NCBI GenBank assembly: GCA_963759165.1
Contig: CAVWXK010000001.1
Span: forward strand, 666,260 to 730,259
Origin: an uncultured Pseudomonadota bacterium
GTDB lineage: Bacteria > Desulfobacterota > Binatia > Binatales > Binataceae
Reading direction: 5' to 3'
DNA length: 64,000 nucleotides
Shown here: positions 2,969 to 31,916 of the stretch, in pieces
Layout: the number at the start of each line of letters is the position of its first letter
Numbering within the stretch: position 1 is the first letter of the stretch
Notes under the pieces: generated by a model
Told to the model about the DNA's origin: nothing
Databases searched by the model: none
Seen by the model: only the letters and a program-made list of their open reading frames with translations
Translations under genes and position numbers: made by a program

Positions 2969-5900
2969 CTATACATACCCTTGAATTTCACAACCGCCAG
3001 CACCGCCAGCGCCGGAAGTTCCTGTATAACTGCCGCCCCCGCCGCCGCCCGGAGATGCGCCCGTTGTGGCTGTTGTTGTTCCAATAGAGCCAGCACCGCC
3101 AGCACCGCCATATACGGACGTTCCACCAGCTGCTGCGGTGACAGAATCACCGGGGCCACCGCCACCGCCTCCCCATTGTGAATTGCCTCCAACAGAGGTG
3201 CCGCCACCGGGATCTCCGCTGCCACCGCCGCCGCCGTATAAGGCCCATCCGCCTGACGAACCATTCCCTCCACCCCCGCCGCCGCCATAAACAGCACCAC
3301 CAGTTCCTTGAGTCGATCCTGTATGCTGCTCCCAAGATGGTCCACCCGCCCCGCCAGCAGTGGTCACTGCATCTGCACCCAATCCGCTTGTCATGCTGGC
3401 CGCATGGTTAGAAAATCCACTACCTCCACCGCCACCGCCACCACTCGTCGCATTCGCAGTCCCACCCGCCCCCGCGCCACCACCATAAGCTGTAACAAAC
3501 GAGCCAAATGTCGACGAGTTACCATGATTTCCGGCAGTGGCAGCTGTAGTTTGCGCTATGCCGCCGGCACCAATTGTCACCGTCGTCGCTGTATTCACTG
3601 CACCTATTGTTGCGGATAAAATATCAAATGGAACGCAAGCACCACCGCCACCACCGCCGCCACCGCCACCGCCAGTGCTCGTGGCACCTTTTCCGCCTGA
3701 CCCACCAGCCCCCCAAAGAAATCCCGTGAATGACGTATAACCGGGCGGGTTATAGAATGTCATTGAGGATGTGACGCGGGTATTGAACCCTTTGTGGACA
3801 AGAGTATGGAAGTTCGTCCCATCAGACTGGAATAATCTTTCCTCGCCTGGGTACATGACGAAACCAGTTGCAGCCGCGATACCATCGAGCGTTCCGCTTG
3901 AAGATTTTATCGTCAGAGCCGCCTGTGATGTGCCGTTATTTTTAAAAATTGCCCACCAGCCGTTCCCAAGCGTTGCAGCAGAAACTATCGTCCACGTGGC
4001 CGCGCTTGCGCCCGTGAAGCTGATGTAGGAATTATTGTCTGTTGTCGTCGGAGCGTATGTGGTGCTTTGCGTGCTGTATGTCAGCGCGGAAGGACCCCCA
4101 CCCCCACTGACAGCGGCAGCAACGTACGCAGTAGTTGCGATCTTCGTTGAGTTATCTCCCGATGACTGCGTGGTTGTGGTCGGGCTGCCAGCGAGAGCGA
4201 CGCTGCTTTTTATTGTAGTCGCTAATGTCCCGCTCGTCGTGACATCTCCCGATAGGTCGCCATTTGTTACTGACGTCGAGCCAGAGAATTTCGAGAGGTT
4301 GCCAGAGGAAGGCGAGCCTGTTGTGGTAACAGTTCCACCCCCACTGGCAGCTACTGCAGCAGTAACGAACCCAGTTGTCGCCACTTTTGTCGAGTTATCT
4401 CCCGGAGATTGTGTCGTCGTTGTGGGAGATCCCGGGAGTGACGCACTGCTTCCAAGCGTAGTGAGCGAGGAAGTGACGACGTTGGACGCGAGCGTGGTTC
4501 CAGTCAATGTTCCCGCGGGGGCTACAACCACATTGGTCGATGCAGCCGTAAGCTGGCCTTGCGCATTGACCGTGAAACTGGGAATCGCCGTTGAAGAGCC
4601 ATATGACGATGCGCTGACGGTCGTGTTGGTGATTGCAAACGTGCTGCCAGAAAGCGTCAAGCCCGTCCCCGCAACGTATGTGCCGGTGCCTGCGACCTGA
4701 GTGAACACGATATTTGACGTTCCAACGGTGATCGTCCCCGTTGTGATTAGCTGGAACGTAGTCGCCGCATATACCGTCCCGCTTTGAATAAAACCGCTGT
4801 CGCCAGGCTGGATCGTCGCGGAGCTATTGAAATCGGTCGTGCGTGTCAGAACATATTGTGCGCCTGCTCCGCCTGCGTTCGTGACCGTATAGATTCCATT
4901 ATTTGCCTGAGTCGCCTCTTCCCATACCAAGATTCGTTGACCTGCAGAAACTGAGCTGCCATCAACCGTCAATGCGCCGTTCGAGTTCGCTGTCAGTGTC
5001 GCGCCGACGCCGGAACTGCCATTGTTATAAGTGTTCGCCGGAAGCGCGCCCGTGGTCGCGTAGTTGCACGCGGCTTTATTTGGGGCATTGGCAAGGGCCG
5101 TGTTCACTGCGGTCGTGACATAGGCGGTCGTTGCGACATTTGTTGAGTTATCCCCCGATGACTGCGTGGTCGTGGTCGGGCTGCCAGCCAGAGCGACACT
5201 GCTTTTGATGCTTGTCGCAAAGCTGCCGCTGCCGGACCCTGTGACATCGCCGGTCAATGTGATGGTCTGATCCCCCGTGTTCGTGCCGGAGAGGTTCGAT
5301 CCTGTCACAGTCCCTGTCGCTGCGACCGAGGTGGGCGTGATATTACCCAGACCAACCGTAATCGTTCCGCTCGATGTTATCGGCGAGCCGCTGATAGTGA
5401 CACCCTGCGACCCTGATGCCGCAACGCTTGTCACTGTGCCACTACTGCTCGCGGCGTCAACATAGGCTGTAGTGGCTAGCTTAGTGGAATTGTCGCCCGG
5501 CCCCTGTGTTGTGGCATGCCCGTGCAGCACGGACGTGCCATTACCAAAATAAACGTCGCCAACACTTGTGTTGCCGATTTGGACTGTATTGTCGGCAGTG
5601 CAGGTGGCACCGGAGCCTATGGCGGTTCTGTTTGTGGCGGCGGCTCCTCCGGCGCCGGCAGTTGAGGCAGCCTGATAACCAAGATAGGTATTATTACTAC
5701 CTGAAGCCAGACCGTTTCCCGCGAGATACCCCATAGCAGTATTGTAGGCACCGCTTATGTTACTACTCATTACCAAATAGCCAACGCCAGTGTTGTATCC
5801 GCCGGATGAGTTTACGGCTAAGGCGCCAGATCCCACGGCGGTTTGCCCCCCGTTCTGGTTAAGGGCGAGCGCTCCGTAGCCGATGGCGGTAACATCGCTG

Positions 5901-6574
5901 CCGGGGGAACTGACCCACACCGCACTCGCACCGACAACAGTGTTGCGTGAATCGGTTGTCATATCTGTTAATGCTTGGGTTCCAATAGCCACGTTATTCT
6001 GGCCGCTTGTAATGCTGCTTAATGCCTGAGTACCTACCGCTACATTCTCGCTGCCGGAGGTATTAGAGCGCATGGCCACATAGCCGATAGCTACATTATT
6101 CTCCCCCGTGTTATTAGCCGGTGTTGAGGACCCCTGAAGCGCTTCTGAGCCGATGGCAACATTTTGGCTACCGATAGTGTTGATCATGGAATGGTAGCCG
6201 ACGGCTACGTTATCTGTTGCTGTAGTGTTTGCGACTAGGCTGCCGATGCCAACGCCCGTATTGTTGGCACCTGAATTATTGGCCCCGGCTCCGCTCCCCA
6301 TGATAAGTATGGTTGACTCATCGCTGACGACATCGCTGAGGTTGCCCAAATCCAGTGAGATGTTCGCGGTCCCGTTAAAGGAAACGCCGGCGATTGTTCT
6401 TGCGGTCTCCAGTGCGGTTGCTGTAGCGGCGTTTCCGTCGATGGAGGCAACCCCGGTGAAGTTGCCTGAACCGTCCACGGTCACTGTGGAGTCCTGAATG
6501 ACCGTGCCTGAAGTGCCGTTCCATCTTGCAATGGCTGTATCCGTTGAAGAGCCTGGTCCTGTAACATTAGCCAT
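2969..6574 (-). CDS. Phage-tail-fibre-like / adhesin-like giant protein with a Gly-rich C-terminal domain
   Basis: The N-terminus has a GNAATATALETARTIAGVSFNGTANI fibre-repeat motif. A block of NxA[IV]GxxA[LM] repeats resembles Hep/Hag (YadA-head) repeats. The motif (S/P)GDNST(K/N)xATT(A/G)(Y/F)V occurs four times. The C-terminus has runs of up to 11 Gly. Confidence 0.75.
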   Translation of the reverse strand: MANVTGPGSSTDTAIARWNGTSGTVIQDSTVTVDGSGNFTGVASIDGNAATATALETARTIAGVSFNGTANISLDLGNLSDVVSDESTILIMGSGAGANNSGANNTGVGIGSLVANTTATDNVAVGYHSMINTIGSQNVAIGSEALQGSSTPANNTGENNVAIGYVAMRSNTSGSENVAVGTQALSSITSGQNNVAIGTQALTDMTTDSRNTVVGASAVWVSSPGSDVTAIGYGALALNQNGGQTAVGSGALAVNSSGGYNTGVGYLVMSSNISGAYNTAMGYLAGNGLASGSNNTYLGYQAASTAGAGGAAATNRTAIGSGATCTADNTVQIGNTSVGDVYFGNGTSVLHGHATTQGPGDNSTKLATTAYVDAASSSGTVTSVAASGSQGVTISGSPITSSGTITVGLGNITPTSVAATGTVTGSNLSGTNTGDQTITLTGDVTGSGSGSFATSIKSSVALAGSPTTTTQSSGDNSTNVATTAYVTTAVNTALANAPNKAACNYATTGALPANTYNNGSSGVGATLTANSNGALTVDGSSVSAGQRILVWEEATQANNGIYTVTNAGGAGAQYVLTRTTDFNSSATIQPGDSGFIQSGTVYAATTFQLITTGTITVGTSNIVFTQVAGTGTYVAGTGLTLSGSTFAITNTTVSASSYGSSTAIPSFTVNAQGQLTAASTNVVVAPAGTLTGTTLASNVVTSSLTTLGSSASLPGSPTTTTQSPGDNSTKVATTGFVTAAVAASGGGTVTTTGSPSSGNLSKFSGSTSVTNGDLSGDVTTSGTLATTIKSSVALAGSPTTTTQSSGDNSTKIATTAYVAAAVSGGGGPSALTYSTQSTTYAPTTTDNNSYISFTGASAATWTIVSAATLGNGWWAIFKNNGTSQAALTIKSSSGTLDGIAAATGFVMYPGEERLFQSDGTNFHTLVHKGFNTRVTSSMTFYNPPGYTSFTGFLWGAGGSGGKGATSTGGGGGGGGGGGACVPFDILSATIGAVNTATTVTIGAGGIAQTTAATAGNHGNSSTFGSFVTAYGGGAGAGGTANATSGGGGGGGSGFSNHAASMTSGLGADAVTTAGGAGGPSWEQHTGSTQGTGGAVYGGGGGGGNGSSGGWALYGGGGGSGDPGGGTSVGGNSQWGGGGGGPGDSVTAAAGGTSVYGGAGGAGSIGTTTATTGASPGGGGGGSYTGTSGAGGAGGCEIQGYV

Positions 6575-6838: not shown

Positions 6839-7197
6839 GGAGTCGGCGGTTTTTTGGAGAACCGCGACGAGAAAAAATCCGGCAACGGCGACAGAAGCGC
6901 TGCGGCGCCGGTCAGGAACCGTGATATCGGTGTACGAACCTTCGCAAGCGGCTTGAGGAAGCGACTCAGCTCTGGTTTCAGGAAGCGAGACTGGCTCAGC
7001 GTGTCCGCGTCGATGGCGGCCTGAGTGGGGGGAGTCGGCGGTTTTGCTAAAAACCGCGATGCAGCGATGCCCGGCAATGGCGGGGAAAGAGCAGCGCCCG
7101 TTATGAACCGGGATATTGGCCGGCGAACCTTGGCAACCTGGTTGAAGAGGCGGCTCAGCTTGGGTTGCAAGAAGCGAGAGCCGCTCAGCGTGCGCGT
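6839..7197. repeat. Two tandem diverged ~170-bp units (offset 192 bp) downstream of the relaxase gene
   Basis: Unit A (6839-7008) and unit B (7031-7197) both begin GGAGTCGGCGGTTTT...AACCGCGA (internal hairpin) and end GAAGCGAG..GCTCAGCGTG.GCG. Identity is roughly 70% by eye. Confidence 0.7.
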
Positions 7198-8672
7198 TTG
7201 GGGCCGTCTCTGGCGCGTTGCTCCACGAGCTGTCTCTCACGTTCTTCATTTTCAGCCTGAAGCTCGCGGGCGAGTTCCTGCTCGCGAACGTAGCGGTCGC
7301 GTTCCTCCGCGTCCTTGACGGCAAGGTCATGGAGGCGCAGCGCGTGCAGTTCCTCGCGATTCTCGATTTCCAGTTTGTTCGTCCGCTGTAAAAACGCGGC
7401 GTAGTCGTCACGCTCCTGCTTCTGGCGCGCGGCGAATCTTTGTTGTTCGCGCTGGCGCTCGGCTTCGCGCTCTGCGGCGCGGGCCGGAGAAAAGAAGCTC
7501 CAGACGGAGTCGATGACGCCGTCGAAACTGGCGCGCGCCTGTTTCTGCCGGCGCCGGAGGTCTTCCGCTTCCCGCCGGTCGTTGGCGTCGCGCCGGTCGA
7601 GGTTTTCGCGGATATTGCGGTCGAGATCAGCGCGGAGTTGGTCCATTTCTGCTCTCTGGGATTCGACGAGCTTGCGGCCCTCCTCGGCCTGACGCTCGGC
7701 GAGAGCTTTTCCGAGGGCCTCGGTTTGGGCTTGCGCGGGGTCTGACGCCGGTTCGGGAGGTTTGTCCGCGGGTTTGTCTTCCTGTTGTTGGGGTTGCTCG
7801 TGAGGTTCCTGCTGCGCGGGCTGCTGCTCCGTGGTTTCCTGCTTCTGAGTTTCCTGCTGGCGTTGCCGTTGAAGCTCGGTCGCCTGTGCCGCGGTGGGGA
7901 GGGTCTCGCGGTCGATGCCTTTCATGAATTCACGCAATTCGGCGGCCTTGCTGTCGCGGATCTGGCGACCGAGGCTGTGAATGCTCCCGGTCTCGTCGAC
8001 GATCACGAAGTCGCGGCGGTCGCCTTTGGCGAGAATGTAGCCCTGCTCTTCGAGGGCCACCTTGAAGGCCTGGGCGTTGTCGGAGGCCTGTTTGAGGGCG
8101 GTGATCTGGTCCTTGCGGGTGGCGGGGTCGATGCCGGTGCGCTCTCCCTGCTGCCATTCGGCCTGATTGGCTTCGGCTCTGGGGAATTCGGGCTGCTTGT
8201 CGCGATCCCGCTTTGCGTGCTTGCCGGGCACCTGCTCATGTCCGAATTCAAGTTCCAGGAGCTGGCTGGCCCGCTCGTGAGCGAGATAATTCTGGCTGTC
8301 CGAGCGCAGGACCATGCGGTCGATGTCGGTGCGCGCCCAGACGACGTGGATGTGCTCGCGGCCGTGCTTCTCATGCATGACGACGGCGCGAGGCTGGCCC
8401 TCAAGGTGGAGTTCTTTTTCGAGGACATCGACGGCGCGCTGCCACTGGTCCCGCGTCATGGTGTAGTCCTTGGCGGGGTCGATATTGGCGTGGTAAAGGC
8501 CCTTGGTGCCGCGCGTCCCCTCGCTAATCGTCTGCCAGTCGCGGAAGGCCTCTGCAAGGTTGGAAGTCGGGAACTGGATTTCGAGGATTTCCACCTTCTC
8601 ATTGGTGTCAAGCCGCTGGAGGTGCCAAGCGAGCTGGCCCGGTGCCGCGCGGCTGCCACCCTTGATAATCAT
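7185..8672 (-). CDS. Relaxase / mobilisation nuclease (MobA/VirD2-type) with a long Glu/Arg/Gln-rich coiled C-terminus
   Basis: N-terminus reads MIIKGGSRAAPGQLAWHL...HANIDPAKDY...HEKHGREHIHVVWARTD (His triad). Its ATG overlaps the mobC stop (ATGA). Confidence 0.85.
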   Translation of the reverse strand: MIIKGGSRAAPGQLAWHLQRLDTNEKVEILEIQFPTSNLAEAFRDWQTISEGTRGTKGLYHANIDPAKDYTMTRDQWQRAVDVLEKELHLEGQPRAVVMHEKHGREHIHVVWARTDIDRMVLRSDSQNYLAHERASQLLELEFGHEQVPGKHAKRDRDKQPEFPRAEANQAEWQQGERTGIDPATRKDQITALKQASDNAQAFKVALEEQGYILAKGDRRDFVIVDETGSIHSLGRQIRDSKAAELREFMKGIDRETLPTAAQATELQRQRQQETQKQETTEQQPAQQEPHEQPQQQEDKPADKPPEPASDPAQAQTEALGKALAERQAEEGRKLVESQRAEMDQLRADLDRNIRENLDRRDANDRREAEDLRRRQKQARASFDGVIDSVWSFFSPARAAEREAERQREQQRFAARQKQERDDYAAFLQRTNKLEIENREELHALRLHDLAVKDAEERDRYVREQELARELQAENEERERQLVEQRARDGPKRAR

Positions 8673-9040
8673 GGGTCGGGACCGTGCTTTTTGCCGAGCG
8701 CGGCATTAATCCGGTTTAGTATATCGAGGCAAGCGCGAAGGACTTGCTGCAGCTCTGGAAGCTTGGCCTTTTCTCCGGAGTTAAGGGCACGCGCTATCTG
8801 GTTGATATTGTTGCCAAGCCGCCCGACCTGGCCCAGATACTGGCGGAGCGCCTTGTGGTCGACGGGCGGGCGGCGCTGGGCGCGGGGGCCGACGTCGCCG
8901 TCGAGGGCGGCGGCGCGCAGGAAGGCGGTAAAAGCGAGACCGGCCTTGTCGGCCTTGGCGGCGATTCGGTTGAATTCGTCGTCCATGAGGCGCATGGAAC
9001 ACCGTTTATTCCGTTGCCGTTTATCGCTGCCGCTGGCCAT
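8669..9040 (-). CDS. mobC: MobC-family relaxosome accessory protein
   Basis: RCSMRLMDDEFNRIAAKADKAGL...LGQVGRLGNNINQIARALN is the classic MobC signature. Confidence 0.85.
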   Translation of the reverse strand: MASGSDKRQRNKRCSMRLMDDEFNRIAAKADKAGLAFTAFLRAAALDGDVGPRAQRRPPVDHKALRQYLGQVGRLGNNINQIARALNSGEKAKLPELQQVLRACLDILNRINAALGKKHGPDP

Positions 9041-9058: not shown

Positions 9059-9229
9059 TCATGGCGGGCATCCCAGGAGCGTGCGGACATATTCTTCGAG
9101 CGTCAGGCCATATTGGGCGGCCTTGGCCGTCAGCATGGCCTCCTGCTCGTCGGTTAATTCGAGGTCAACAGCGTGGGTGCGCATCGTCCATTTGTCGATG
9201 ACCGGGTATCTGTCTGTCGTGGCGCTCAT
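9059..9229 (-). CDS. Small putative ribbon-helix-helix DNA-binding protein (relaxosome/regulatory)
   Basis: The ATG at 9229 is preceded by AAGGA. The C-terminus ...LTDEQEAMLTAKAAQYGLTLEEYVRTLL is RHH/CopG-like. It sits directly upstream of mobC. Confidence 0.5.
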   Translation of the reverse strand: MSATTDRYPVIDKWTMRTHAVDLELTDEQEAMLTAKAAQYGLTLEEYVRTLLGCPP

Positions 9230-9253
9230 GGTTGCCTGTCCTTTCGTTCCTGC

Positions 9254-9556
9254 CAAGGCCGTCCGTCACTGACGGCCTGCCCGGCTCTTCCTGACCCGCC
9301 GCGCATGGGTCCCAAGGGCGAAGCGCCTTGGTCTGGGTTCCACAGGGGCACGAAGGCCCCTTGGTGGGGTCCATGGGGCAAAGCCCATGGTGCGCGGCTC
9401 CCGCCGCACAGGGTCGCAGGGGCGAAGCTCCCGTCAGGGGTGCAGGGGCAGAAAACCCCTGCTCCTGGGGGATGCAACGGGGGACGAAGTAACCCCCCTT
9501 GCCAAGCCAGAGCGCCGGTTTCCGGCGCTCGGTGTGGGCGGCCTGCGGTCCGCCCG
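9254..9556. repeat. Array of about 8-9 consecutive GC-rich hairpins, many with CGAAG/GAAA-type loops
   Basis: Examples: AGGCCGTC/GACGGCCT (9256-9278), CCAAGG..CCTTGG (9312-9331), CCATGGGGC-AAA-GCCCATGG (9371-9390), GCAGGGG-CAGAAAA-CCCCTGC (9442-9462), GAGCGCCGG-TTT-CCGGCGCTC (9510-9530), GGGCGG..CCGCCC (9536-9555). Confidence 0.7.
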
Positions 9557-9576
9557 CGCATGGCTTGCCACGCACG

Positions 9577-9700
9577 ATAATGGGAATTTTCCCTATTATA
9601 TTTTCAGAATACCACCGAACCGTTGAGAAAGAATTAACGTCGGTGGCGTGGGTATGCTTATGGTGAATTATACTACGATTCGCGGGTAATATGTGAACAA
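9577..9700. promoter_or_regulatory. Candidate oriT / promoter region of the mob operon
   Basis: AT-rich stretch between the T4CP stop and the mob genes. It has imperfect inverted repeats ATAATGGGAA-TTTT-CCCTATTAT (9577-9599) and CCACCGAACCGTT...AACGTCGGTGG (9612-9646). The nick site was not identified. Confidence 0.3.
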
Positions 9701-9733
9701 TTATCGTCACCAACTCAAGAATTGCCGACGGAC

Positions 9734-12574
9734 CTATTCCCCGAGTAATAGCGCCTTCGCCGCATTCAGCTCTTTCGAGAAATAGCTGGAGCCGCCAAGG
9801 TCCGGGTGCACCTTTTGTATCAGCCTGCGATAGGCCGCCAGGATTTCTGTCCGGCTCGCATTGCGTTCAACTTCGAGGATATCTCGCGCCCGCTCCTCGG
9901 TCATAAAGGGCTCGGGCTTTGGTGGTGGCGGCTTGGGTCGCGCCTTTTCCTTTGCCCCTGACCCTCCATTCCCTCCACCCGGTGGCGGCGGTGGCGGTGG
10001 CGGTGGCGCAAAATACGGATTCTCGTCATAGGCGATCGGCGGCTGCCAATACAGGGCCGGGTGTGTTTGCTGCAACGCAACAAAAGCCTTCGTCAGGTTC
10101 CAGTAATCGACCGGCCTGAGGTAATGCGGGTGGCCGTTGGGCTGGATGGCGATGGCTACGTCCTTGCCTAAGTTGAGGACTTCGTCGGGGTTGAGCAGCG
10201 AGCGCCCCGTCTCGCTATGTGTGGTGCTCTGGCTGGAGCTGGAGCTTCCGCCATGCGCGGAGCTGCTGCTGCTGGAAGAACTGGAGGTGCTGGTGGTTTC
10301 GACGGTGGCCTTACCGAGGGTGTCGCTGAGGTATTTCGCGCTTTCGAGGTCATTGACGTTGCAAAACCACTGGTACGCGCAATTGGACAGGATCGTGGCT
10401 TTGGCCTCCGCGTAGTGGTCCTTCAACTGGTCGAGGCCCTGCACGATGAGGGCGAAATCGACCCCGAAGCCGCTCATGGTGGCGATGTCGCGGGGCAGGT
10501 CGTCGAGCCGCCCGAGCGCCGCAAACTCGTCGATGAGAAACAGGCAGCGATGGCCGTATGGCAGTTTCGTCTGCCGGTTTTTGAAGATGTGCATGGCGGC
10601 GGCGATGACCAGACGCAGCCATGTCTTTTGCGTATCCATCCGTTCCGTCGGGATGACGACATAGACGGTCGCTTTCTGCGTCGCGAGGTCCTCCATCGCG
10701 AAAGACGACTTCGCCGTCGCCGCCTTGATCTGGGGGTCGCTCAGGAACTTGGTGCTCTCGCTCAGGTTCGACATGACGCCGCTGTAGGTTTCATCGGCAA
10801 GGTCGATGAACGGCGCGGCCATTTCGCGGATCGCGCCTGAGAAAGCTTCGCTCGCCGCCATGGGGATCAGGTATTTCGCGGTGAAGTCCTTGCGGGTGAG
10901 GCTCACGATCTCCCGCGCGCGTCCCAGCGTCTTTTGCTCGCCCGGCTGGTCGGCGAGCCAGAGAAATACCGCCGTCAGCACGTTCGCCGCACTGCCCTGC
11001 CAGAACCGGTCCTTGGCGTTCGGCGGAGCCGGGCAGATGGCGCCGGCCAGCGTCTGCGCGATCGCCACGACACTCGGGTCGGTTCGAACAAGGATGTCGA
11101 GCGGGTTGTAGGTGGCTTGAATGAAGCCGCGCTTTTCGTAGGTCGCGGCGAGTTCTTTCCACGGGTTGAGGATGTGGATACTCTGCTTGAGCTGCTCCTT
11201 GCGGATGCCGGCGGTGATGGCGGCATTCTCGCCCTTGGGGTCGATCACAAGGGCGGAGCCGCGGTAGCGCAGCAAGGTCGGAATGATCACCCGCGTCCCT
11301 TTGCCGGTTCTGGTGCGGGCGACGATGAGGGTGTGATGTTCCGCGGTCGAGCAGACTGGCGCGCCCTGAGCGCCGAGCGTTGCCGCCGCCCACCCCGGTT
11401 GGCTGCTTTTGCCAAAGAAAAGTCCATTCGCGAGGCACGCGTCGTCCTTGATGTCGGTTTCCATCGCGGCGTAGTGCGCGGTGCCGTAGACGGTGGAGGT
11501 CTCACGGGCCGGCGGGCCACGGCGGCGGGAAAACCAGTAGAACAGAGGGAGCGCCACTATCGCGCTGAAAACGATCACGTCGGTTGCGCTCACCACGGTG
11601 CCTGCGGAAGGTTGTGAAAATTGGCCGGTGTTCGCCGCTGGCGCGGGTTGCCGGCGCGCGGCAGCAACGGCGACACCCCCTTGCCGGTAATCCCGCTCGA
11701 ATTCACTGCCCTTCCCCGCCGCCTGCCATTTCTGCCGCAGGCGCCCAAGGTCCGTGGTCAGGATCATGTCGGTTTCGCGCCAGGTGGGGGCGTCGATATC
11801 CTTTTTGATCGAGTAGCGATTGCTGACTTCAGTGATTTGGGCGAGAAGCTCCACGGCCAGACTAACGTCGCGCTGATAGTCGGCCGGGGACGTGCCGCCC
11901 TGGCCCTTTCCCTGCCCCGCCGGAACTCTGGACACCGGGATGGGCATCGCCGGGTTCGTGGCGATAGCCTGAGACATCTGTTCGAGCTGGTGGTCGAAGC
12001 TGTCGACGTAGCCCTGGCCTTCGGACGCGTACTTGCCGCGAAGCGCCATGATCTCGTCCATGGCCTTCTTGTCCTCGGTTGCGAATTGCTCCGCCGTGAT
12101 CTCGCCGCGGTCGCGGCGCTGCTGGAGCAACAGGCGCCGGCGTTGAGGCTCAAGCGCCGCCCGAACATCCGCCGTGAGGGCGTCGTTGACGGTGCGGTCG
12201 TGTTCAACCTGCTGCTGCCTGAATTGCGCGGCGCGGGCTTGCAGTTGTGGCACAAGGGTCGCGAGGCGGAGTTTAGTCAGGCCCTCGATCTGGCTCTTGG
12301 CCTGCTGCTGCTCGTCCGCAGGGAACTGCGCGAGCTGTCGGTAGAGGGTCTTGAGCTCGGGATCGATTGCCGTGCTGCGGAGATAAAATGTGTGAATGTC
12401 GATCTGCTGATTGTTCCGCAGGAAACGGTTTTCTTCGGTCTGGACGTTGAGTTCGACGATACGCTGGATCGTCGCATCAGGAACTTTGGCGAAGGCTGGC
12501 GCGGCCCACAGGCACAGCATCAGAAGCGGTGCGTACCGCCACAGGCTGGTCAGACTCGCTGGTCGTGTGCTCAT
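9734..12574 (-). CDS. TraG/VirD4-family type IV coupling protein with a long N-terminal exported coiled-coil region and a C-terminal J-domain
   Basis: Signal-like N-terminus, ~330-aa Gln/Arg-rich region, then a TM segment (VIVFSAIVALPLFYWF). T4CP motifs ARTRTGKGTRVIIPTLL, VIDPKGEN and FLIDEFAALGRL follow. After poly-Ser and poly-Pro linkers comes ILAAYRRLIQKVHPDLGG (HPD). Confidence 0.85.
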   Translation of the reverse strand: MSTRPASLTSLWRYAPLLMLCLWAAPAFAKVPDATIQRIVELNVQTEENRFLRNNQQIDIHTFYLRSTAIDPELKTLYRQLAQFPADEQQQAKSQIEGLTKLRLATLVPQLQARAAQFRQQQVEHDRTVNDALTADVRAALEPQRRRLLLQQRRDRGEITAEQFATEDKKAMDEIMALRGKYASEGQGYVDSFDHQLEQMSQAIATNPAMPIPVSRVPAGQGKGQGGTSPADYQRDVSLAVELLAQITEVSNRYSIKKDIDAPTWRETDMILTTDLGRLRQKWQAAGKGSEFERDYRQGGVAVAAARRQPAPAANTGQFSQPSAGTVVSATDVIVFSAIVALPLFYWFSRRRGPPARETSTVYGTAHYAAMETDIKDDACLANGLFFGKSSQPGWAAATLGAQGAPVCSTAEHHTLIVARTRTGKGTRVIIPTLLRYRGSALVIDPKGENAAITAGIRKEQLKQSIHILNPWKELAATYEKRGFIQATYNPLDILVRTDPSVVAIAQTLAGAICPAPPNAKDRFWQGSAANVLTAVFLWLADQPGEQKTLGRAREIVSLTRKDFTAKYLIPMAASEAFSGAIREMAAPFIDLADETYSGVMSNLSESTKFLSDPQIKAATAKSSFAMEDLATQKATVYVVIPTERMDTQKTWLRLVIAAAMHIFKNRQTKLPYGHRCLFLIDEFAALGRLDDLPRDIATMSGFGVDFALIVQGLDQLKDHYAEAKATILSNCAYQWFCNVNDLESAKYLSDTLGKATVETTSTSSSSSSSSSAHGGSSSSSQSTTHSETGRSLLNPDEVLNLGKDVAIAIQPNGHPHYLRPVDYWNLTKAFVALQQTHPALYWQPPIAYDENPYFAPPPPPPPPPGGGNGGSGAKEKARPKPPPPKPEPFMTEERARDILEVERNASRTEILAAYRRLIQKVHPDLGGSSYFSKELNAAKALLLGE

Positions 12575-16439: not shown

Positions 16440-17798
16440 TCACTTCTTCGTTGGAGGTTTCGCGGGTGTGGCTCCTGCTGCGCCAGCGTTCACGCTGTCG
16501 GCTGTTTCGCCTGAGCCATCCGCGATAGGCTGCCATCCCGGTATGCCCTGCAGAATGCGCTCGGCATTCTTTGCAGGCGTGATGTGGCCGTAGTAGTCCT
16601 CGATCATCTTGACCGATGTTCCCATTTGTTTCGCAAGGAAGTACACGTCCACGCCTTCCATCAGCCGGAAGGTCGCGTAGGTGTGACGGAGGCAATAGCC
16701 GCTGCGGCGCGTGCCGGATACGCCATAGAGCAGGCCGGATTTCGTCAGCAGATCGGCGATGAGCGTGTCATAAAGACTTTTGGCTGTCTTTCCTTCGGCA
16801 GTCGTGAATACAGGGTCGTCGGATTTTGTCGCTTTTGACATTGCCTTGATGCGGTCGAGATAAGTGGCGACGTTGTTGGCTGCAATCAACTCCCGGTACT
16901 TGCCCTTGCCCCTGACGTTCAGGGTCACAAACGGGCGGCCATCGCGGGTCGTTCGCACGTCGATGTCGCGCCATCTGAGGCTCCGGGCCTCTCCCGTCCG
17001 CATACCGGTATTGGCCATGATGAGCATGAAGTTGTAGGCCATGGTCCTGTACCAGATATTGATTTCTCTGTCGCCTTTTCCTATCCAGTCGCGGGCGAAG
17101 GTATGCAGCTGGCGGTATTCCTGCGGCGTGAATTCATCACGCCGATTCTTGTCCTCGGGCATGCGGCCCTTCGGCACCTGGCTCTCTTTTATATAATGCT
17201 TGCCCGCGGCGAAGTTCATGATGGCCCGGAAGGTCATCATTTCCTGGCGGATCGTGCCGCTCTTTGCGGGCCCGTTCTTCTTCTTTTGTTCGGCGTCCTC
17301 CTTCGCATCCGGCAAAGCGCCGGGCTTCGGCTTCTTGCGGAAGACGCGCTTCTGCGGCTTTCTTAGTGCGTTATTCTCTTTGCGCCAGAAGGGGTATTCC
17401 GTCCATTTGTCCTCGGTGATGGAAGTTATCTGCATATTGCCCATGTAGGGGATGAGGTGCAGGCGGATATGTCCGTCCACGGTCTTCCAGCGATGCAGGG
17501 TGACCTGGCCGATATCCGCGACACGTTTCTGGAAACATGAGTATTCCTTTGCTACGTCAGCAAAGGACTTGTCGAACACCGGAACCTGATGCCGTACCCG
17601 GAATCGGATATCTGAATCGTGGTCAAAAGCCTTTTCTTTAGCTTCGTTGATATCGGATGTCTTCAGGGAGATCGTTTTATACTGGCTGGTGCTTGGCACC
17701 TTGACGCGGCAGTACCAATTCTTGTGCCGCACATCGGCCCTGCGGAAGATGATGAGGCCTTTCTTGAGTTCCTGAACGTCGGTGAGGAAATGTTCCAA
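16440..17798 (-). CDS. Tyrosine recombinase / integrase (Int1)
   Basis: ANTGMRTGEARSLRWRDI (catalytic Arg box) and CLRHTYATFRLMEGVDVYFLAKQMGTSVKMIEDYYGH (H-x-x-R ... Y). TTG start. Confidence 0.9.
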   Translation of the reverse strand: MEHFLTDVQELKKGLIIFRRADVRHKNWYCRVKVPSTSQYKTISLKTSDINEAKEKAFDHDSDIRFRVRHQVPVFDKSFADVAKEYSCFQKRVADIGQVTLHRWKTVDGHIRLHLIPYMGNMQITSITEDKWTEYPFWRKENNALRKPQKRVFRKKPKPGALPDAKEDAEQKKKNGPAKSGTIRQEMMTFRAIMNFAAGKHYIKESQVPKGRMPEDKNRRDEFTPQEYRQLHTFARDWIGKGDREINIWYRTMAYNFMLIMANTGMRTGEARSLRWRDIDVRTTRDGRPFVTLNVRGKGKYRELIAANNVATYLDRIKAMSKATKSDDPVFTTAEGKTAKSLYDTLIADLLTKSGLLYGVSGTRRSGYCLRHTYATFRLMEGVDVYFLAKQMGTSVKMIEDYYGHITPAKNAERILQGIPGWQPIADGSGETADSVNAGAAGATPAKPPTKK

Positions 17799-27021: not shown

Positions 27022-27697
27022 TGTTCTGTCCTCCGCTCTTTGTTGCGCCCGCTTCCCGTTCATCGGGCAGGGCGTGCCGCCTTGCTTTCATCACCGCGCA
27101 ACTTTTTTCCGCGCGGCCCTCTCACAAAAACTGGAGGGCCGTGCGCAGATTCCTGGATGTGCGAGCGGAGCGGGCGGCAGGCCGTGCCAGAGCGCAGCGG
27201 CCCGAAGGGATGGCGCGGCGTGCTAGCGCAGCGAACGCCACCAAATAGGGGTTAGGGCTTCGACTTAAAGGGAAAGGCTGACGGGCGAGTTTGGAGGTTC
27301 AGCAGGGCAATTGCGGAGGCAACTCGCAACCGGTCCTGAGGCCGGACGCGCATCGAACCGCCAAAATGTCGTTTTTATGGTGACAAATTATGGGCCAAAA
27401 GTGTTGAGGAATGGTTAAGCCATTGAACGAATGGCCCTATTGGCCCATTTTTGGCGAAGACCAAAGGCACGCAGTTATGCACGCGGCTACAACTTGGGCC
27501 CCCCTGGAAAGCCCTTGGACTCAACTCCGGGCTCGAACGTCGCGTTTGCAAACCACGTGGTCTTGGTGCGAGCCTGAACCGGAAGTCAAGATGGTAATCC
27601 CGAGAACATCGTCATGTGCGGAACCGCAGTTGCACCCGAAACCTCACGGGCGCGTCTCAACGTCCGTCCGCTCGCCGCACGACTAAAGGACGATAAA

Positions 27698-29524
27698 ATG
27701 GTTTCAAAGTCTGAATGTCTCGACGCAGTAAAGAGTCTGCGAGCTAACCAGGCCGTGGAGGCCTCTGATGAGAACATCATCGCGGCTATTCACTTAAACA
27801 ACACTCATGGTCTTGGTATTGACGCAGCGCTCGACCAGAGTTCGCGTAGTGGGAATGATCACGGTGTGGATGCTTGGTATTACGATGACACCAAGAAGAC
27901 GCTGATCGTTTATCAAAGTAAACTCAGTGAGAGCAAAGCCGCGGCCTTGGCTGGATTGGCCGACCTCAATAGGGCGCGTGCGTGGCTGGAGGAAGTGATA
28001 ATCGCTGGAACAGTAGCAACCATCCCAAATGACAATCACTGCTTATTTAATCTCTACACGAAACTTTCGGAAGTACGGAACACTCTTCAACGTGTCGAGT
28101 TTGAATTGGTATCCTGTTTCAGCAAGAACGACTTGGAAGATGCGCCAGAATACAGCGAGTTCGAAAGTGGCCTCGCCAAATCTAAACTGAATGCGTTCGT
28201 TAAGGGCCAGTTAAGCGGTTCATTGGCAGTAGACCTTGCAGAGTACAACCTCTTACCTACCGTCTGCATACCTAAGACGTATCCGTTAATCAGACTTCCG
28301 CATTCCCGAATCGATTTGAGGCACAACGCCCATCTGGATTTAGCGTACATTCCGCTGCACAGCCTCGTCGAACTTTACCGAGTCAGAGGTAATGTACTAT
28401 TCGATAAGAACGTGCGGCTTTCGTTGTTAGAAAAAAAGGATGCGAGCGAGCGATTGATTCATCCGATAGAAGATACCCTGAAGAGAATCACCTCTGGCAC
28501 TCTAAGTCCGAACATTTTCCCCTTTTACCACATTGGCGTAACCATTGCAGCCAGGGTTTCCACCGCCCAAAACAAGGATATGCTGACTTTAGAGGCTCCT
28601 AGTATTATCAATGGCTGTCAGACAATCACCATCGCCTATGCGTACTTCAAGGAGCTTGAAAAGGCAAACAGGCCAGAGGCAATTGAGCGCTTCAAGCAGA
28701 TCAAGGTGATTGCCAAAATTGTCGTGGGCACAACCAGCGAAGAGCTCAAGGAGATTACCAATGCCAATAATCGGCAGTACCCTATCGAAGATTGGCAGCT
28801 ATTTTCAAATGAACCAATACACATTGAGATCGAACAAACACTGAAGGATATCGGGGTGTTCTATGAGCGACAGGAAGGCAAGTTCGATGCTGTGATGAAG
28901 AGTGCGGACAGCGCGAAGTATTACATCAACACCAACGGTACTTACATTAAGGTTGTCGATCTCGGCCAAGTAATTGCGTTGGCGCGGAGGGATCTGCGCT
29001 GGGCGGCGAAGCCTTCGGAGATTTTCTGGAACAAACAAAATCACGACAGAGTATTCGACAAAGCCATCCCAAGGTGCCCGAGAGATATCGTCTTCTGCTT
29101 GAACCTCCAGAAGGCGATCAGACGCGGCTTGAACGTGTACTTGGAACAACCCACTCTCGCCAACAGTAGTGCCCCCAAAATCTTTCAGAAGCCGTTAGTT
29201 AGAGCCTACTTATCACGTACCGCTCTGCTATACTTTTACCAGAATCCGAAGAATGAATGGATTCGCAAGGACTTTTCTAAGAAATTATCGAAGAAAGCTA
29301 GCCCGACGCTTGTGGAGGAGATGCAGACGTTTTACCTGAAGGTCATAAGCAAAACCAAGAATTGGTACACGGGCGAATCGCAAGGATTGAAGGTTGAGGT
29401 CTCTAAGAAGAATATGGACTCGTTCTTCGGCGGATTAGAGATTGAATTGGGGGTAGTCGGGACTGAGGGTTCAATTCCATTTTCGGGCACAAGCATTGAC
29501 TGGACGAAACATGACGAGGATTGA
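27698..29524 (+). CDS. AIPR-family (abortive infection phage resistance) protein
   Basis: 608 aa from the ATG at 27698 (RBS AAAGGA). It has the ...IINGCQTITIAY... motif typical of AIPR and is visibly more AT-rich than its flanks. Confidence 0.65.
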   Translation: MVSKSECLDAVKSLRANQAVEASDENIIAAIHLNNTHGLGIDAALDQSSRSGNDHGVDAWYYDDTKKTLIVYQSKLSESKAAALAGLADLNRARAWLEEVIIAGTVATIPNDNHCLFNLYTKLSEVRNTLQRVEFELVSCFSKNDLEDAPEYSEFESGLAKSKLNAFVKGQLSGSLAVDLAEYNLLPTVCIPKTYPLIRLPHSRIDLRHNAHLDLAYIPLHSLVELYRVRGNVLFDKNVRLSLLEKKDASERLIHPIEDTLKRITSGTLSPNIFPFYHIGVTIAARVSTAQNKDMLTLEAPSIINGCQTITIAYAYFKELEKANRPEAIERFKQIKVIAKIVVGTTSEELKEITNANNRQYPIEDWQLFSNEPIHIEIEQTLKDIGVFYERQEGKFDAVMKSADSAKYYINTNGTYIKVVDLGQVIALARRDLRWAAKPSEIFWNKQNHDRVFDKAIPRCPRDIVFCLNLQKAIRRGLNVYLEQPTLANSSAPKIFQKPLVRAYLSRTALLYFYQNPKNEWIRKDFSKKLSKKASPTLVEEMQTFYLKVISKTKNWYTGESQGLKVEVSKKNMDSFFGGLEIELGVVGTEGSIPFSGTSIDWTKHDED

Positions 29525-30614: not shown

Positions 30615-31916
30615 TCAGGTTGGCGGTGATTTTTCGCGCGGCTTTTTTGGCTTGGGCCGCATGATGTTGATGGCGGCGGCGTCAAGCTGCGTCTTGATAT
30701 GGGCGGCGTAGTACTTCTCGATCATCTCGACGCTGGTGCGGCAGTTTTTGGCAATCTGGTAGATGTCGGCGCCTTCCATCAGGCGCAGACATATATATGT
30801 GTGCCGGAGGCTGTAGGCCGTTCGGGGCCGGCCCTCGCGGTCGAACCTGAGATTCTCTTCATCGAGGATGGTCTTGAAAAGCTCGCGCTGCCATTTCGGA
30901 AAAATCAGGTCTGTGGGTTCCGGCAGGCGTAATTCTGCGGAGCCGTTCGCAGCGGCGTTTGCGCCGTTGTTCTGATTGGCGGCGTTGCCGGCGCGCGCGG
31001 GGCGCGGTCTGGCCTTCAGTCTTTCAAAGGGGCGCACGGCGCCGCTCATGCTCTTGCAGTAACCGACACCGCGTTTTCCGCGGACCTCGATTTCAAGGAT
31101 GGTTTGACGGCTCGCCTCGTCTTCGACGATCGTCACGTCGCGGAATTGCAGCCGCCATGCTTCATCGGGCCGCAGGCCCGTGTTGGCTGCGAACAGGACG
31201 TAATCATGAAGCTGCTCCGATTCCCATTTGTAGCGCGCATTCTTCGGCTCATGTGCGCGCTTCCGTGTGGCTTCGTAGAGCTTTTTGTATTCCTCGGGCG
31301 AGAACCAGGCGCGGTGCGAGATTTTTGGCGACGCCCGGTAGGGTTCGGAGAGGTCAGGCAGCCGGTCGAGCCATCCGTTGCGGACGGCGGCTTTCAACGT
31401 CTGCCGCAGGGTGACGATTTCCTGATGGGTGGTGTTGCGGGCCGGTGGCTTGCCGCGCTTCTTCATCGCTTCTTCAAGGCGATGGATGCGGTACTCCTGA
31501 ACCTTGCCGGCAGTGATTTCCGAAAGGCCCAAGGGGCCGAAGAATGGCACAAGGTGCACCCGCGACCGCCAGTGCTGGCCGTTCACGTAAACCTTGCTGC
31601 GTTGGCCCTGCGTGATGAGGTCGTATTCGCGCAGGAACTGTTCCGAGGCTTCGGCGAAGGTCTTCTCCGTTTTGATTTCGCCGTTGCGGAGCTTGCCGCG
31701 AAGCTGGAGATACCAGTCTTCCGCGATCTCCTTGGCGCGAGAGAGGCTTTCTTCCTTGGTGGTGGTGCGGCGGTTTTTGCCGCCGAGGTAGGTGGCGCAT
31801 TGCCAGCGGGGACTGTTCGGCCGTTTGTAAACGTGAACCTTGCCGCCCAGGATTGTGTGGTGTTCGCTCACTGAAAAATGCCGTCCGAACACCCCGAAAC
31901 GTAGCAGAATGTGCAA
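30615..31916 (-). CDS. Tyrosine recombinase / integrase (Int2)
   Basis: ANTGLRPDEAWRLQFRDV and SLRHTYICLRLMEGADIYQIAKNCRTSVEMIEKYY. TTG start at 31916, or GTG at 31871. Confidence 0.9.
   Translation of the reverse strand: MHILLRFGVFGRHFSVSEHHTILGGKVHVYKRPNSPRWQCATYLGGKNRRTTTKEESLSRAKEIAEDWYLQLRGKLRNGEIKTEKTFAEASEQFLREYDLITQGQRSKVYVNGQHWRSRVHLVPFFGPLGLSEITAGKVQEYRIHRLEEAMKKRGKPPARNTTHQEIVTLRQTLKAAVRNGWLDRLPDLSEPYRASPKISHRAWFSPEEYKKLYEATRKRAHEPKNARYKWESEQLHDYVLFAANTGLRPDEAWRLQFRDVTIVEDEASRQTILEIEVRGKRGVGYCKSMSGAVRPFERLKARPRPARAGNAANQNNGANAAANGSAELRLPEPTDLIFPKWQRELFKTILDEENLRFDREGRPRTAYSLRHTYICLRLMEGADIYQIAKNCRTSVEMIEKYYAAHIKTQLDAAAINIMRPKPKKPREKSPPT

Follow-up and report, generated by a model that had tools for sequence, protein, structure and literature searches.

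A VirD4/TraG-type coupling protein with an additional N-terminal domain and a C-terminal J-domain, encoded by a mobilisable module that lacks its own type IV secretion system

Conjugation spreads genes between bacteria, and the relaxase pilots the DNA. Canonical type IV coupling proteins (T4CPs) span the membrane with two helices, between which lies a short periplasmic loop, and they end in acidic, unstructured C-terminal extensions; their periplasmic loops contact VirB10 (PMC7434980). Relaxases must unfold for transit across a type IV secretion system (T4SS), and the unfoldase is unknown (PMC5826034; PMC7434980); in the words of one source, "which enzyme/unfoldase is responsible ... remains unclear" (PMC5826034). 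Mobilisable elements that have their own T4CP and no mating-pore genes, and that need a helper T4SS, are described in a general statement (PMC7434980). The gene considered here lies in a 64-kb window, the whole stretch of DNA that was analysed (contig CAVWXK010000001.1, positions 666,260 to 730,259, of an uncultured bacterium of the Binatia). It occupies window positions 9734..12574 on the minus strand, stop codon included, and encodes a T4CP of 946 residues with a presumably periplasmic N-terminal domain (N-domain) and a C-terminal J-domain.

A J-domain with the HPD tripeptide docks on ATP-bound Hsp70, triggers hydrolysis, and locks Hsp70 on a nearby polypeptide, and J-proteins of class C act by position. 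The closest described arrangements are Pam18/Tim14, with its partner Pam16/Tim16, and Sec63, in which a minimal class-C J-domain is tethered to a translocase and Hsp70 is activated at the channel. The T4CP of this window shares with TrwB of R388, VirD4 of A. tumefaciens, and Cagβ of H. pylori the core with Walker A and Walker B motifs, the all-alpha domain, the TraG-D_C region, and N-terminal anchoring. In contrast to canonical T4CPs, it has a signal-peptide-like start, a folded, presumably periplasmic domain of ~280 residues, only one transmembrane helix, a folded J-domain, and no cognate T4SS.

Gene and layout: The open reading frame (ORF) at 9734..12574(-) begins with ATG, runs for 946 codons, and is uninterrupted by stops. 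From the N- to the C-terminus, the protein consists of a predicted Sec-type signal peptide, an all-helical domain of ~280 residues, one transmembrane helix, the NTPase core, a Pro-rich tether, and the J-domain. An earlier description made from the sequence alone (the sequence-only reading) had proposed a coupling protein fused to a J-domain, and the motifs it quoted are all located in the ORF: TRTGKG at residues 421-426, DPKGEN at 445-450, LIDEFAALGRL at 680-690, the Ser tract at 764-772, the P9 tract at 857-865, and ILAAYRRLIQKVHPDLGG with the HPD at 923-925. The full-length AlphaFold2 (AF2) model, computed with a 120-sequence alignment as input, has a mean predicted local distance difference test (pLDDT) score of 88.3. 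The gene caller began the protein at M19 (window position 12520 as opposed to 12574; 928 aa), which cuts off the basic n-region of the signal peptide. The longer start, the ATG at 12574, is favoured because homologues conserve the MSTRP...RYAPL n-region. A comparison of the ribosome-binding sites of both candidate starts gave no discrimination. In what follows, residue ranges of the protein are accompanied by their window positions, all on the minus strand.

NTPase core: The VirD4/TraG NTPase core with its all-alpha domain spans residues 360-855 (10010..11497), as assigned by PF02534, PF12696, PF10412, and Foldseek. The Pfam model T4SS-DNA_transf (PF02534) matches residues 403-829 with E 3.6e-78 and 263.9 bits (cut-off 20.1), and TraG-D_C (PF12696, E 1.1e-30) and TrwB_AAD_bind (PF10412, E 3.5e-26) are also above their cut-offs. 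Walker A (TRTGKGT, residues 421-427; 11294..11314) and Walker B (LFLIDEF, residues 678-684; 10523..10543) show conservation of at least 90% across the 120 aligned sequences. Structural comparison of the core by Foldseek retrieves Cagβ (8dol, E 2.6e-20, TMt 0.67), TrwB (1e9s, ~1e-12, TMt ~0.7), and DotL (6sz9, 1e-6). The VirD4/TraG models of NCBIfam are matched, and since every equivalog and subfamily model scores below its cut-off, the T4CP falls in none of the named subfamilies. The T4CP identity is thus borne out by the Pfam profiles, the Walker motifs, the TrwB-like fold, and the linkage to relaxase genes. By every sequence and fold criterion the protein belongs to the T4CP family, and it deviates from that family in membrane topology, ectodomain, and C-terminal module. 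The core also holds a Ser-rich stretch (residues 763-786; 10217..10288), which AF2 places at the low-confidence tip of a β-hairpin with strands 755-766 and 781-792. It is a family feature: the consensus is rich in Ser/Thr here, and so are distant VirD4 relatives. Its candidacy as an inter-domain linker is ruled out, as the hairpin tip belongs to the core and related VirD4 proteins share it.

J-domain: The core is followed by a disordered Pro/Gly/Lys-rich tether that includes the P9 tract (residues 856-889; 9908..10009; pLDDT <50 for 867-888), and similar low-complexity tethers precede the tail in homologues. The tail itself is a class-C J-domain of Tim14/Pam18 type (residues 890-946; 9737..9907), recognised by Pfam, by a profile comparison with the PDB, and in the AF2 model. 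Its HPD tripeptide (residues 923-925; 9800..9808) is invariant in an alignment of 25 tails. In the full protein, Pfam DnaJ (PF00226) matches residues 898-927 with 30.4 bits, just above the cut-off of 27.8, and the isolated tail reaches 34.6 bits (E 2e-8). T4SS-DNA_transf, TraG-D_C, and DnaJ, the domains that the sequence-only reading had named for confirmation, are therefore all above their Pfam cut-offs. The profile of the 25 homologous tails gives 63 matches in the PDB, all of them J-domains. The best is yeast Tim14/Pam18 (2guz_A, E 3.9e-15), and E. coli DnaJ follows at ~1e-10. In the AF2 model, helix I covers residues 893-900, helix II 908-922, and helix III 930-943, with the HPD in the loop between II and III and a pLDDT of ~96. 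Helix II is basic (R916, R917, K921). Helix IV is absent from the tail, and the three-helix chain of Tim14 is aligned over residues 9-64 of 71. The J-domain claim thus stands as significant on Pfam, profile, fold, and HPD. Matches to the DnaJ family are limited to the J-domain, with no Gly/Phe region, zinc finger, or client-binding domain, which is the class-C condition; NCBIfam adds a weak DjlA match. Because the HPD is intact, helix II basic, and a client-binding domain lacking, the J-domain would act as a fixed local activator of the host Hsp70.

The tail and Tim14 share the signature HPDxGGS...(I/L)NxAKdxL. The same J subtype ends small membrane-anchored J-proteins (DjlA- or Tim14-like), which carry the J-domain at the C-terminus and score 91-108 bits against the T4CP tail profile. 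An exhaustive profile search finds small bacterial proteins ending in this subtype in 4977 cluster representatives at E <=1e-10; this search replaced a word-indexed one with the 61-residue tail, which offered too few words and returned 12 proteins only. The small proteins are ~90-260 aa long, and those inspected have N-terminal transmembrane helices (for example P0133, P0137, P0138, P0141, and P0146). They form a large, apparently uncharacterised family of membrane-anchored, Tim14-like J-proteins, and unlike the T4CP they have no NTPase and no known link to conjugation. Since the same subtype ends small membrane-anchored proteins, the J-domain of the T4CP is of the membrane-tethered class-C kind.

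Conservation of the fusion: The homology search gave 394 relatives, of which the best 120 were aligned and 119 analysed for tail class, the tail being whatever follows residue 854 of the reference, where the conserved core closes with ...YDxNPY. A J-domain with HPD ends 67 of the 119 proteins. Short tails of <45 aa are found in 30, a homologous domain without HPD in 10, an AAA+ module of ~300 aa in 3, and other tails in 9. Precomputed Pfam strings likewise combine PF00226 with the three T4CP domains in most of the best 120 relatives. The J tail with HPD occurs in homologues down to ~45% identity, and the tripeptide is present in all 67 members of this class. Their consensus is M-T-x-x-e-A-R-e-I-L-g-V...A-Y-x-x-L-m-x-K-V-H-P-D-x-G-G-S-x-y-f-A-k-e-L-N-a-A-K-x-v-L-L-G-e. 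In the 25-tail alignment (37-72% identity to the tail of the window), the H, P, and D, both glycines, and three helix positions are invariant. The fusion is not the product of a missing stop or an indel between two genes, for the same tail with intact HPD recurs in 67/119 homologues from independent assemblies. Judged from these alignments, the fusion is real and under selection.

The tails without HPD are homologous to the J tails (hhalign probability 99%, E 7.5e-18). They have a three-residue deletion exactly at the HPD loop and keep helices I-III and the C-terminal VLLGE in at least ten clade members. Examples of HPD-less J-like tails are P0084, P0088, P0092, P0095, P0096, P0100, P0117, and L049, and P0020 has two such copies in tandem. 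HPD-less J-like variants thus exist both in the T4CP clade and in the Pam18/Pam16 system, and by analogy the tails resemble the situation of Pam16/Tim16. Other members (P0075, P0082, and P0086, of ~1158 aa, and locus L028 from a proteobacterial metagenome-assembled genome (MAG)) have an AAA+ module in the position of the J-domain behind the same Pro-rich linker. It is of CbbX type (3zuh, 4e-61) and close to the type VII ATPase EccA1 (9lur, 1e-49); in P0082, AAA at residues 935-1066 is followed by AAA_lid_6. In the maximum-likelihood tree of the core, J-bearing proteins stand on both sides of the deepest split. The simplest history suggested by the tree would be an ancestral J tail that was then repeatedly lost, decayed, or replaced.

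N-terminus and membrane topology: The N-terminus (residues 1-29; 12488..12574) resembles a signal peptide, with the sequence MSTRPASLTSLWRYAPLLMLCLWAAPAFA and a putative cleavage site AFA|KV, supported by the homologue alignment. In MSTRPASLTSLWRYAPLLMLCLWAAPAFA|KVPD, a basic n-region is followed by a hydrophobic core of 16 residues and an AxA site, and the pattern A-x-A|(Q/E/K)VP is found in most of the 120 aligned sequences. The n-region, the hydrophobic core, and a pattern that recurs in homologues agree with the signal-like start that had been noticed, and a signal peptide is accordingly the predicted assignment. Residues 30-308 (11651..12487) form an all-alpha, presumably periplasmic domain of eight helices. 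The region had been taken for a long Gln/Arg-rich coiled-coil-like segment: the Gln/Arg-rich character holds, and the simple coiled coil does not, as AF2 predicts a compact eight-helix domain (residues 30-307, pLDDT 92) with a helix of 70 residues at 86-155. The pLDDT is 92.4 when the domain is modelled alone and 91-98 within the full-length model. A search against Pfam with E up to 1 returns only sub-threshold SHOCT and GvpG noise, the N-domain profile gives a single match among PDB sequences (E 0.11), and Foldseek against the PDB reaches at best E 1.8 with a TM score <=0.22. A profile search among size-matched proteins finds the domain outside T4CPs in four gene fragments only, on very short contigs. 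The N-domain is a new, presumably periplasmic domain without detectable sequence or fold relative.

The N-domain is followed by a disordered linker (residues 309-329; 11588..11650; pLDDT <50) that is neutral in charge, and by the single transmembrane helix (residues 330-349; 11528..11587), which has a hydropathy peak of 2.17, an AF2 helix at 335-349, and flanking charges. It is the only strong transmembrane segment, as the sequence-only reading had it. Directly after it comes RRRGPPAR, which obeys the positive-inside rule and therefore places residues 30-329 outside the cytoplasm and the NTPase and J-domain inside. The topology suggested by these features is an N-domain exported by a Sec signal, a single transmembrane anchor, and a cytoplasmic NTPase, tether, and J-domain. 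There is no two-helix anchor with a short periplasmic loop, as 300 residues separate the hydrophobic stretch from the transmembrane helix. An uncleaved first segment would give a cytoplasmic N-terminus, a transmembrane helix, a giant loop, and a second transmembrane helix, an atypical variant still within the T4CP family.

The ectodomain differs among the closest relatives. P0008 and P0013, with core identity of up to 91%, retain the signal peptide and have a different ectodomain and extra transmembrane segments. This other ectodomain, with the motif ...IADIRGSD.LDTAARQVAALN..., is seen in P0008, P0013, P0015, P0018, P0025, P0029, P0127, and P0130, all of which keep the signal peptide and the J tail and have three extra hydrophobic segments. 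As the closest relatives carry another ectodomain behind the same signal peptide, the ectodomain is an exchangeable module. The swap fits an adaptation to different partners and is no proof of it. By analogy with the VirB10-contacting loops of TrwB, it is plausible that the N-domain docks onto a foreign secretion channel.

Mobilisation module: As in the case of VirD4/TraG coupling proteins, the gene stands beside relaxase and relaxosome genes. Directly downstream of it on the same strand lies a non-coding gap of 477 bp (9257..9733), likely the promoter and a putative origin of transfer (oriT) region, judged from its sequence and from its retention in homologous loci. Beyond the gap, on the minus strand, are a NikA-like small protein of the ribbon-helix-helix type (65 aa; 9059..9256; Pfam NikA-like E 3.7e-5, below the cut-off), a NikA/MobC relaxosome accessory protein (123 aa; 8669..9040; Pfam NikA-like 1.2e-16, MobC 8.2e-9), and a relaxase of MobA/VirD2 type (495 aa; 7185..8672; Pfam Relaxase 2e-12) with a long charged C-terminal region. 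Two NikA-like genes (9059-9256 and 8669-9040, both on the minus strand) stand in a row upstream of the relaxase. In the six homologous loci, which represent the J, AAA+, and short-tail classes, the gene order is always T4CP, NikA/MobC, relaxase. A gap of ~0.4-0.55 kb is found in four of the six (L002, L003, L008, and L005); that of L005 sits downstream of an inserted ArdC gene, the gap is larger in L006, and it is filled by an ORF in L007. Genes near these modules encode ParB_N, KlcB, ArdC, SSB, or an integrase. The gene is thus the coupling protein of a mobilisable, T4SS-less module composed of T4CP, putative oriT gap, ribbon-helix-helix NikA/MobC protein, and MOBP relaxase.

No T4SS genes are present in the 64-kb window or within 10 kb of the module in any of the six homologous loci. 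VirB4 (PF03135), AAA_10, and TrbI/VirB10 are all without a match in the host assembly (3.85 Mb in 2 contigs, with a completeness rating of 83%), whose sole T4CP is the one with the J-domain. The only plasmid in PLSDB with a close member is the 19.3-kb pcai42B of Frigidibacter mobilis (NZ_CP012663.1), which MOB-suite types as mobilizable and MOBP. With the markers missing from the window, the host assembly, the six homologous contexts, and this mobilizable-typed 19-kb plasmid, the claim that the element encodes no T4SS of its own is upheld. Among the other host genomes, VirB4 occurs somewhere in 8/18, never adjacent to the module, and it is absent from 10/18. The use of a helper T4SS is what these data lead us to infer for the module. 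The host genome has three Hsp70-family genes, one of them a canonical DnaK at 918 bits. On pcai42B (L087, 989-1983), the T4CP-J gene is annotated as three overlapping coding sequences, one named 'J domain-containing protein'; the split probably reflects frameshifts or a pseudogene. The plasmid also has a gene for a prepilin-type protein downstream of the relaxase.

Distribution: J-bearing homologues are found in Acidobacteriota, Binatia, and many Alphaproteobacteria. A database search for the architecture thus retrieves the same T4CP-J layout in several phyla. Among species-representative genomes with the J-fusion, the closest is from Candidatus Binatia (77% identity), and others are Candidatus Acidoferrum, Halodurantibacterium, Ruixingdingia, Sphingobium jiangsuense, and S. 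fluviale. The fusion also occurs in Sphingomonas laterariae, Sphingopyxis, Phenylobacterium, Micavibrio, Albimonas pacifica, Elioraea tepidiphila, and Brevundimonas. Across Caulobacterales, Sphingomonadales, and Micavibrio (L012-L018, L029, L041), the T4CP genes are 91-96% identical in DNA, and the module has therefore moved recently between orders. The genera concerned are Phenylobacterium, Sphingobium, Sphingomonas, Sphingopyxis, and Micavibrio, together with a Sphingosinicellaceae genome.

Surroundings in the window: The surroundings of the module include a tRNA-Arg gene (1477-1553), an IS110 transposase, two tyrosine recombinases (16440-17798 and 30615-31916), a GHKL-nuclease with Dcm methyltransferases, ArdC, and AIPR. 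Directly after the tRNA-Arg, at the island edge, a gene on the plus strand (1570-2658) encodes a CapR-homology protein of 362 aa with four DUF4379 treble-clef zinc-finger repeats. The AIPR-family (abortive-infection-like) gene (27614-29524, plus strand) lies in a low-GC patch at 28-30 kb (48% compared with ~60% around it). A second copy of the tRNA-Arg 3' end was not found within the window by searches with a 28-mer at <=3 mismatches, an 18-mer at <=2, and a general direct-repeat search. Near the relaxase, a gene on the minus strand (2969-6574) encodes a large Gly-rich protein of 1201 aa with no Pfam match. A large gene of secreted or surface type near the relaxase is recurrent (L003 16856-22799, L007 13919-16759, L005 16166-19108, L006 19401-20900, L008 3973-6522). 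The products at homologous loci are RTX proteins (HemolysinCabind; 946 or 2981 aa), an autotransporter of 980 aa, an LTD protein, and a Laminin_G_3 protein. The recurrent large protein could be a mating adhesin or exchangeable cargo.

Comparison with described systems: MobB of CloDF13 is an example of a T4CP on a mobilisable element. The module resembles mobilisable plasmids and integrative mobilisable elements in having a relaxase, accessory proteins, and its own T4CP without mating-pore genes. On the other hand, none of the described mobilisable elements with their own T4CP is reported to have a J-domain or a large periplasmic domain. Literature searches, including reviews of T4CPs and T4SSs, returned no description of the T4CP-J architecture, and a 2025 review of T4SSs makes no mention of Hsp70 or a J-protein. 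In line with the sequence-only reading, which was aware of none, the literature searched yielded no characterised T4CP-J fusion. The architecture is already visible in automated annotation (Pfam strings and the PGAP name 'J domain-containing protein') and is undescribed in the literature found. EccA of the type VII system and the ATPase of the type III secretion system are also substrate-handling ATPases. These are separate proteins or systems, whereas the T4CP would leave this activity to the host Hsp70 by way of a 57-residue adaptor. The CbbX/EccA1-type module found in the J position of some clade members suggests an equivalent task, the preparation of a folded protein for export. Two differences from Tim14 and Sec63 are that the J-domain of the T4CP is covalently part of the motor ATPase and that it lies on the cis (entry) side, whereas the other two work at the trans side, with Hsp70 pulling or ratcheting the chain in. 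A J-domain on the cis side means that Hsp70 could unfold or hold the substrate and not pull it.

Proposed mechanism: The reading to which we give an even chance is that the T4CP of this mobilisable element recruits the host DnaK, by which the relaxase or the relaxosome would be unfolded or remodelled, and that it engages a helper T4SS. The J-domain would draw DnaK with bound ATP to the cytoplasmic side of the hexameric T4CP and set off ATP hydrolysis. DnaK would then clamp a client held by the T4CP, most likely the relaxase covalently attached to T-DNA, or else the relaxosome accessory proteins. By unfolding the relaxase or holding it in a translocation-competent state, or by stripping the relaxosome, DnaK could prepare the substrate before it is handed over to the channel of the helper T4SS. 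The periplasmic domain may contact this channel in place of the short periplasmic loops of canonical T4CPs. By relying on a universal chaperone of the host, the module would not be tied to a particular helper T4SS or host, which would suit an element that moves between orders. Among these steps, the recruitment of DnaK by the J-domain is likely by analogy with characterised J-domains, and the relaxase or relaxosome would be the client. For the unfolding or remodelling step, circumstantial evidence comes from the Tim14/Pam18 subtype and from the AAA+ remodeller in the same position. That an AAA+ module of the polypeptide-threading type occupies the J position is the strongest, likewise circumstantial, support for a substrate-handling role of the tail.

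Several observations weigh against this reading. There is no direct evidence that DnaK acts in conjugation through this or other modules. Hsp70 on the cis side of the pore cannot pull the substrate through. Well-supported branches of the core tree force at least 11 changes of tail state, by loss, HPD decay, or replacement, and the tail is consequently dispensable in some settings; the versions without HPD cannot stimulate Hsp70. No T4SS component is detectably related to the N-domain. As VirB4 is lacking in 10/18 hosts and in the present one, the helper would have to be transiently acquired or of an unrecognised type, and the host assembly is rated 83% complete only.

The repeated loss of the tail fits a modulatory, not essential, role and hence an alternative in which the J-domain brings DnaK for the T4CP itself. 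DnaK would then help the hexamer to assemble or come apart, or take part in the quality control of so large a membrane protein. Alternatively, it would keep the motor switched off as long as no helper T4SS is available, so that transfer would depend on the heat-shock (DnaK-titration) state of the cell. J-proteins of class C often target the complex that tethers them, and for the small membrane-anchored J-proteins of this subtype no exported client is obvious, yet the replacement of the J-domain by a CbbX/EccA-type AAA+ module points to a client polypeptide, and the long flexible tether suits a reach to bound substrate. Nothing computational distinguishes a T4CP client from a relaxase client; we regard the former as possible and on balance unlikely. 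The HPD-less tails raise another explanation, namely that the tail is an Hsp70-independent interaction module, comparable to Pam16/Tim16, that binds a relaxosome protein or a T4CP subunit, with the HPD a relic in many members. At least ten members retain a homologous HPD-less domain with conserved helices I-III and VLLGE, and P0020 even has it in tandem. Against this, HPD-x-GG is invariant in the 67 J-class members despite tail identities of 37-72%, and the basic helix II is kept; such invariance amid divergence is a signature of selection for Hsp70 stimulation, and a purely binding role is considered quite unlikely.

It is very improbable that no classical helper T4SS is used and that the module works with another envelope machine or export route, or has a non-transfer function in the island. 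The absence of T4SS markers from this genome and from 10/18 other hosts, the novelty of the N-domain, and the very large secreted-type gene beside the relaxase would agree with this. However, a gene strictly linked to NikA/MobC and a MOBP relaxase, and a plasmid typed as mobilizable, are classic for helper-dependent mobilisation; many of the hosts are represented by incomplete MAGs, helper plasmids often stay only for a time, and VirB4 is found elsewhere in 8/18 hosts. It is barely conceivable that a T4CP gene and a separate small J-protein gene were joined through an error of assembly or annotation. The J-domain of pcai42B is annotated as a separate protein, and the full-length Pfam DnaJ score is only just above its cut-off; on the contrary, the same continuous ORF is found in dozens of independent assemblies from several phyla, the three overlapping pieces on pcai42B are consistent with frameshifts, and the profile E-values are strong. 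An artefactual fusion is ruled out by this conservation across independent assemblies.

A broader and rather speculative view, to which we attach a low probability, extends the proposal of DnaK recruitment to the whole clade. Its members would be self-sufficient adaptor translocases, in which six periplasmic domains plug into machines that are not of, or are more diverse than, the VirB type, while the J-domain, via the host Hsp70, or the AAA+ module supplies the unfolding of the relaxase. If this view is true, Hsp70 would be a general and overlooked energy source for substrate preparation in conjugation, matching on the cis side what the Tim14-mtHsp70 motor does for mitochondrial import. A coupling protein with a probably Hsp70-recruiting J-domain hard-wired at its substrate-entry face is a natural experiment on relaxase unfolding. 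The occurrence of a J-domain and of a CbbX/EccA-type AAA+ module in the same position is a pointer to where and how substrate preparation may happen, and the new periplasmic domain may explain how the T4CPs of mobilisable elements engage foreign secretion channels. Among soil and water bacteria, the module represents a class of T4SS-less mobilisable elements that is widespread and actively spreading.

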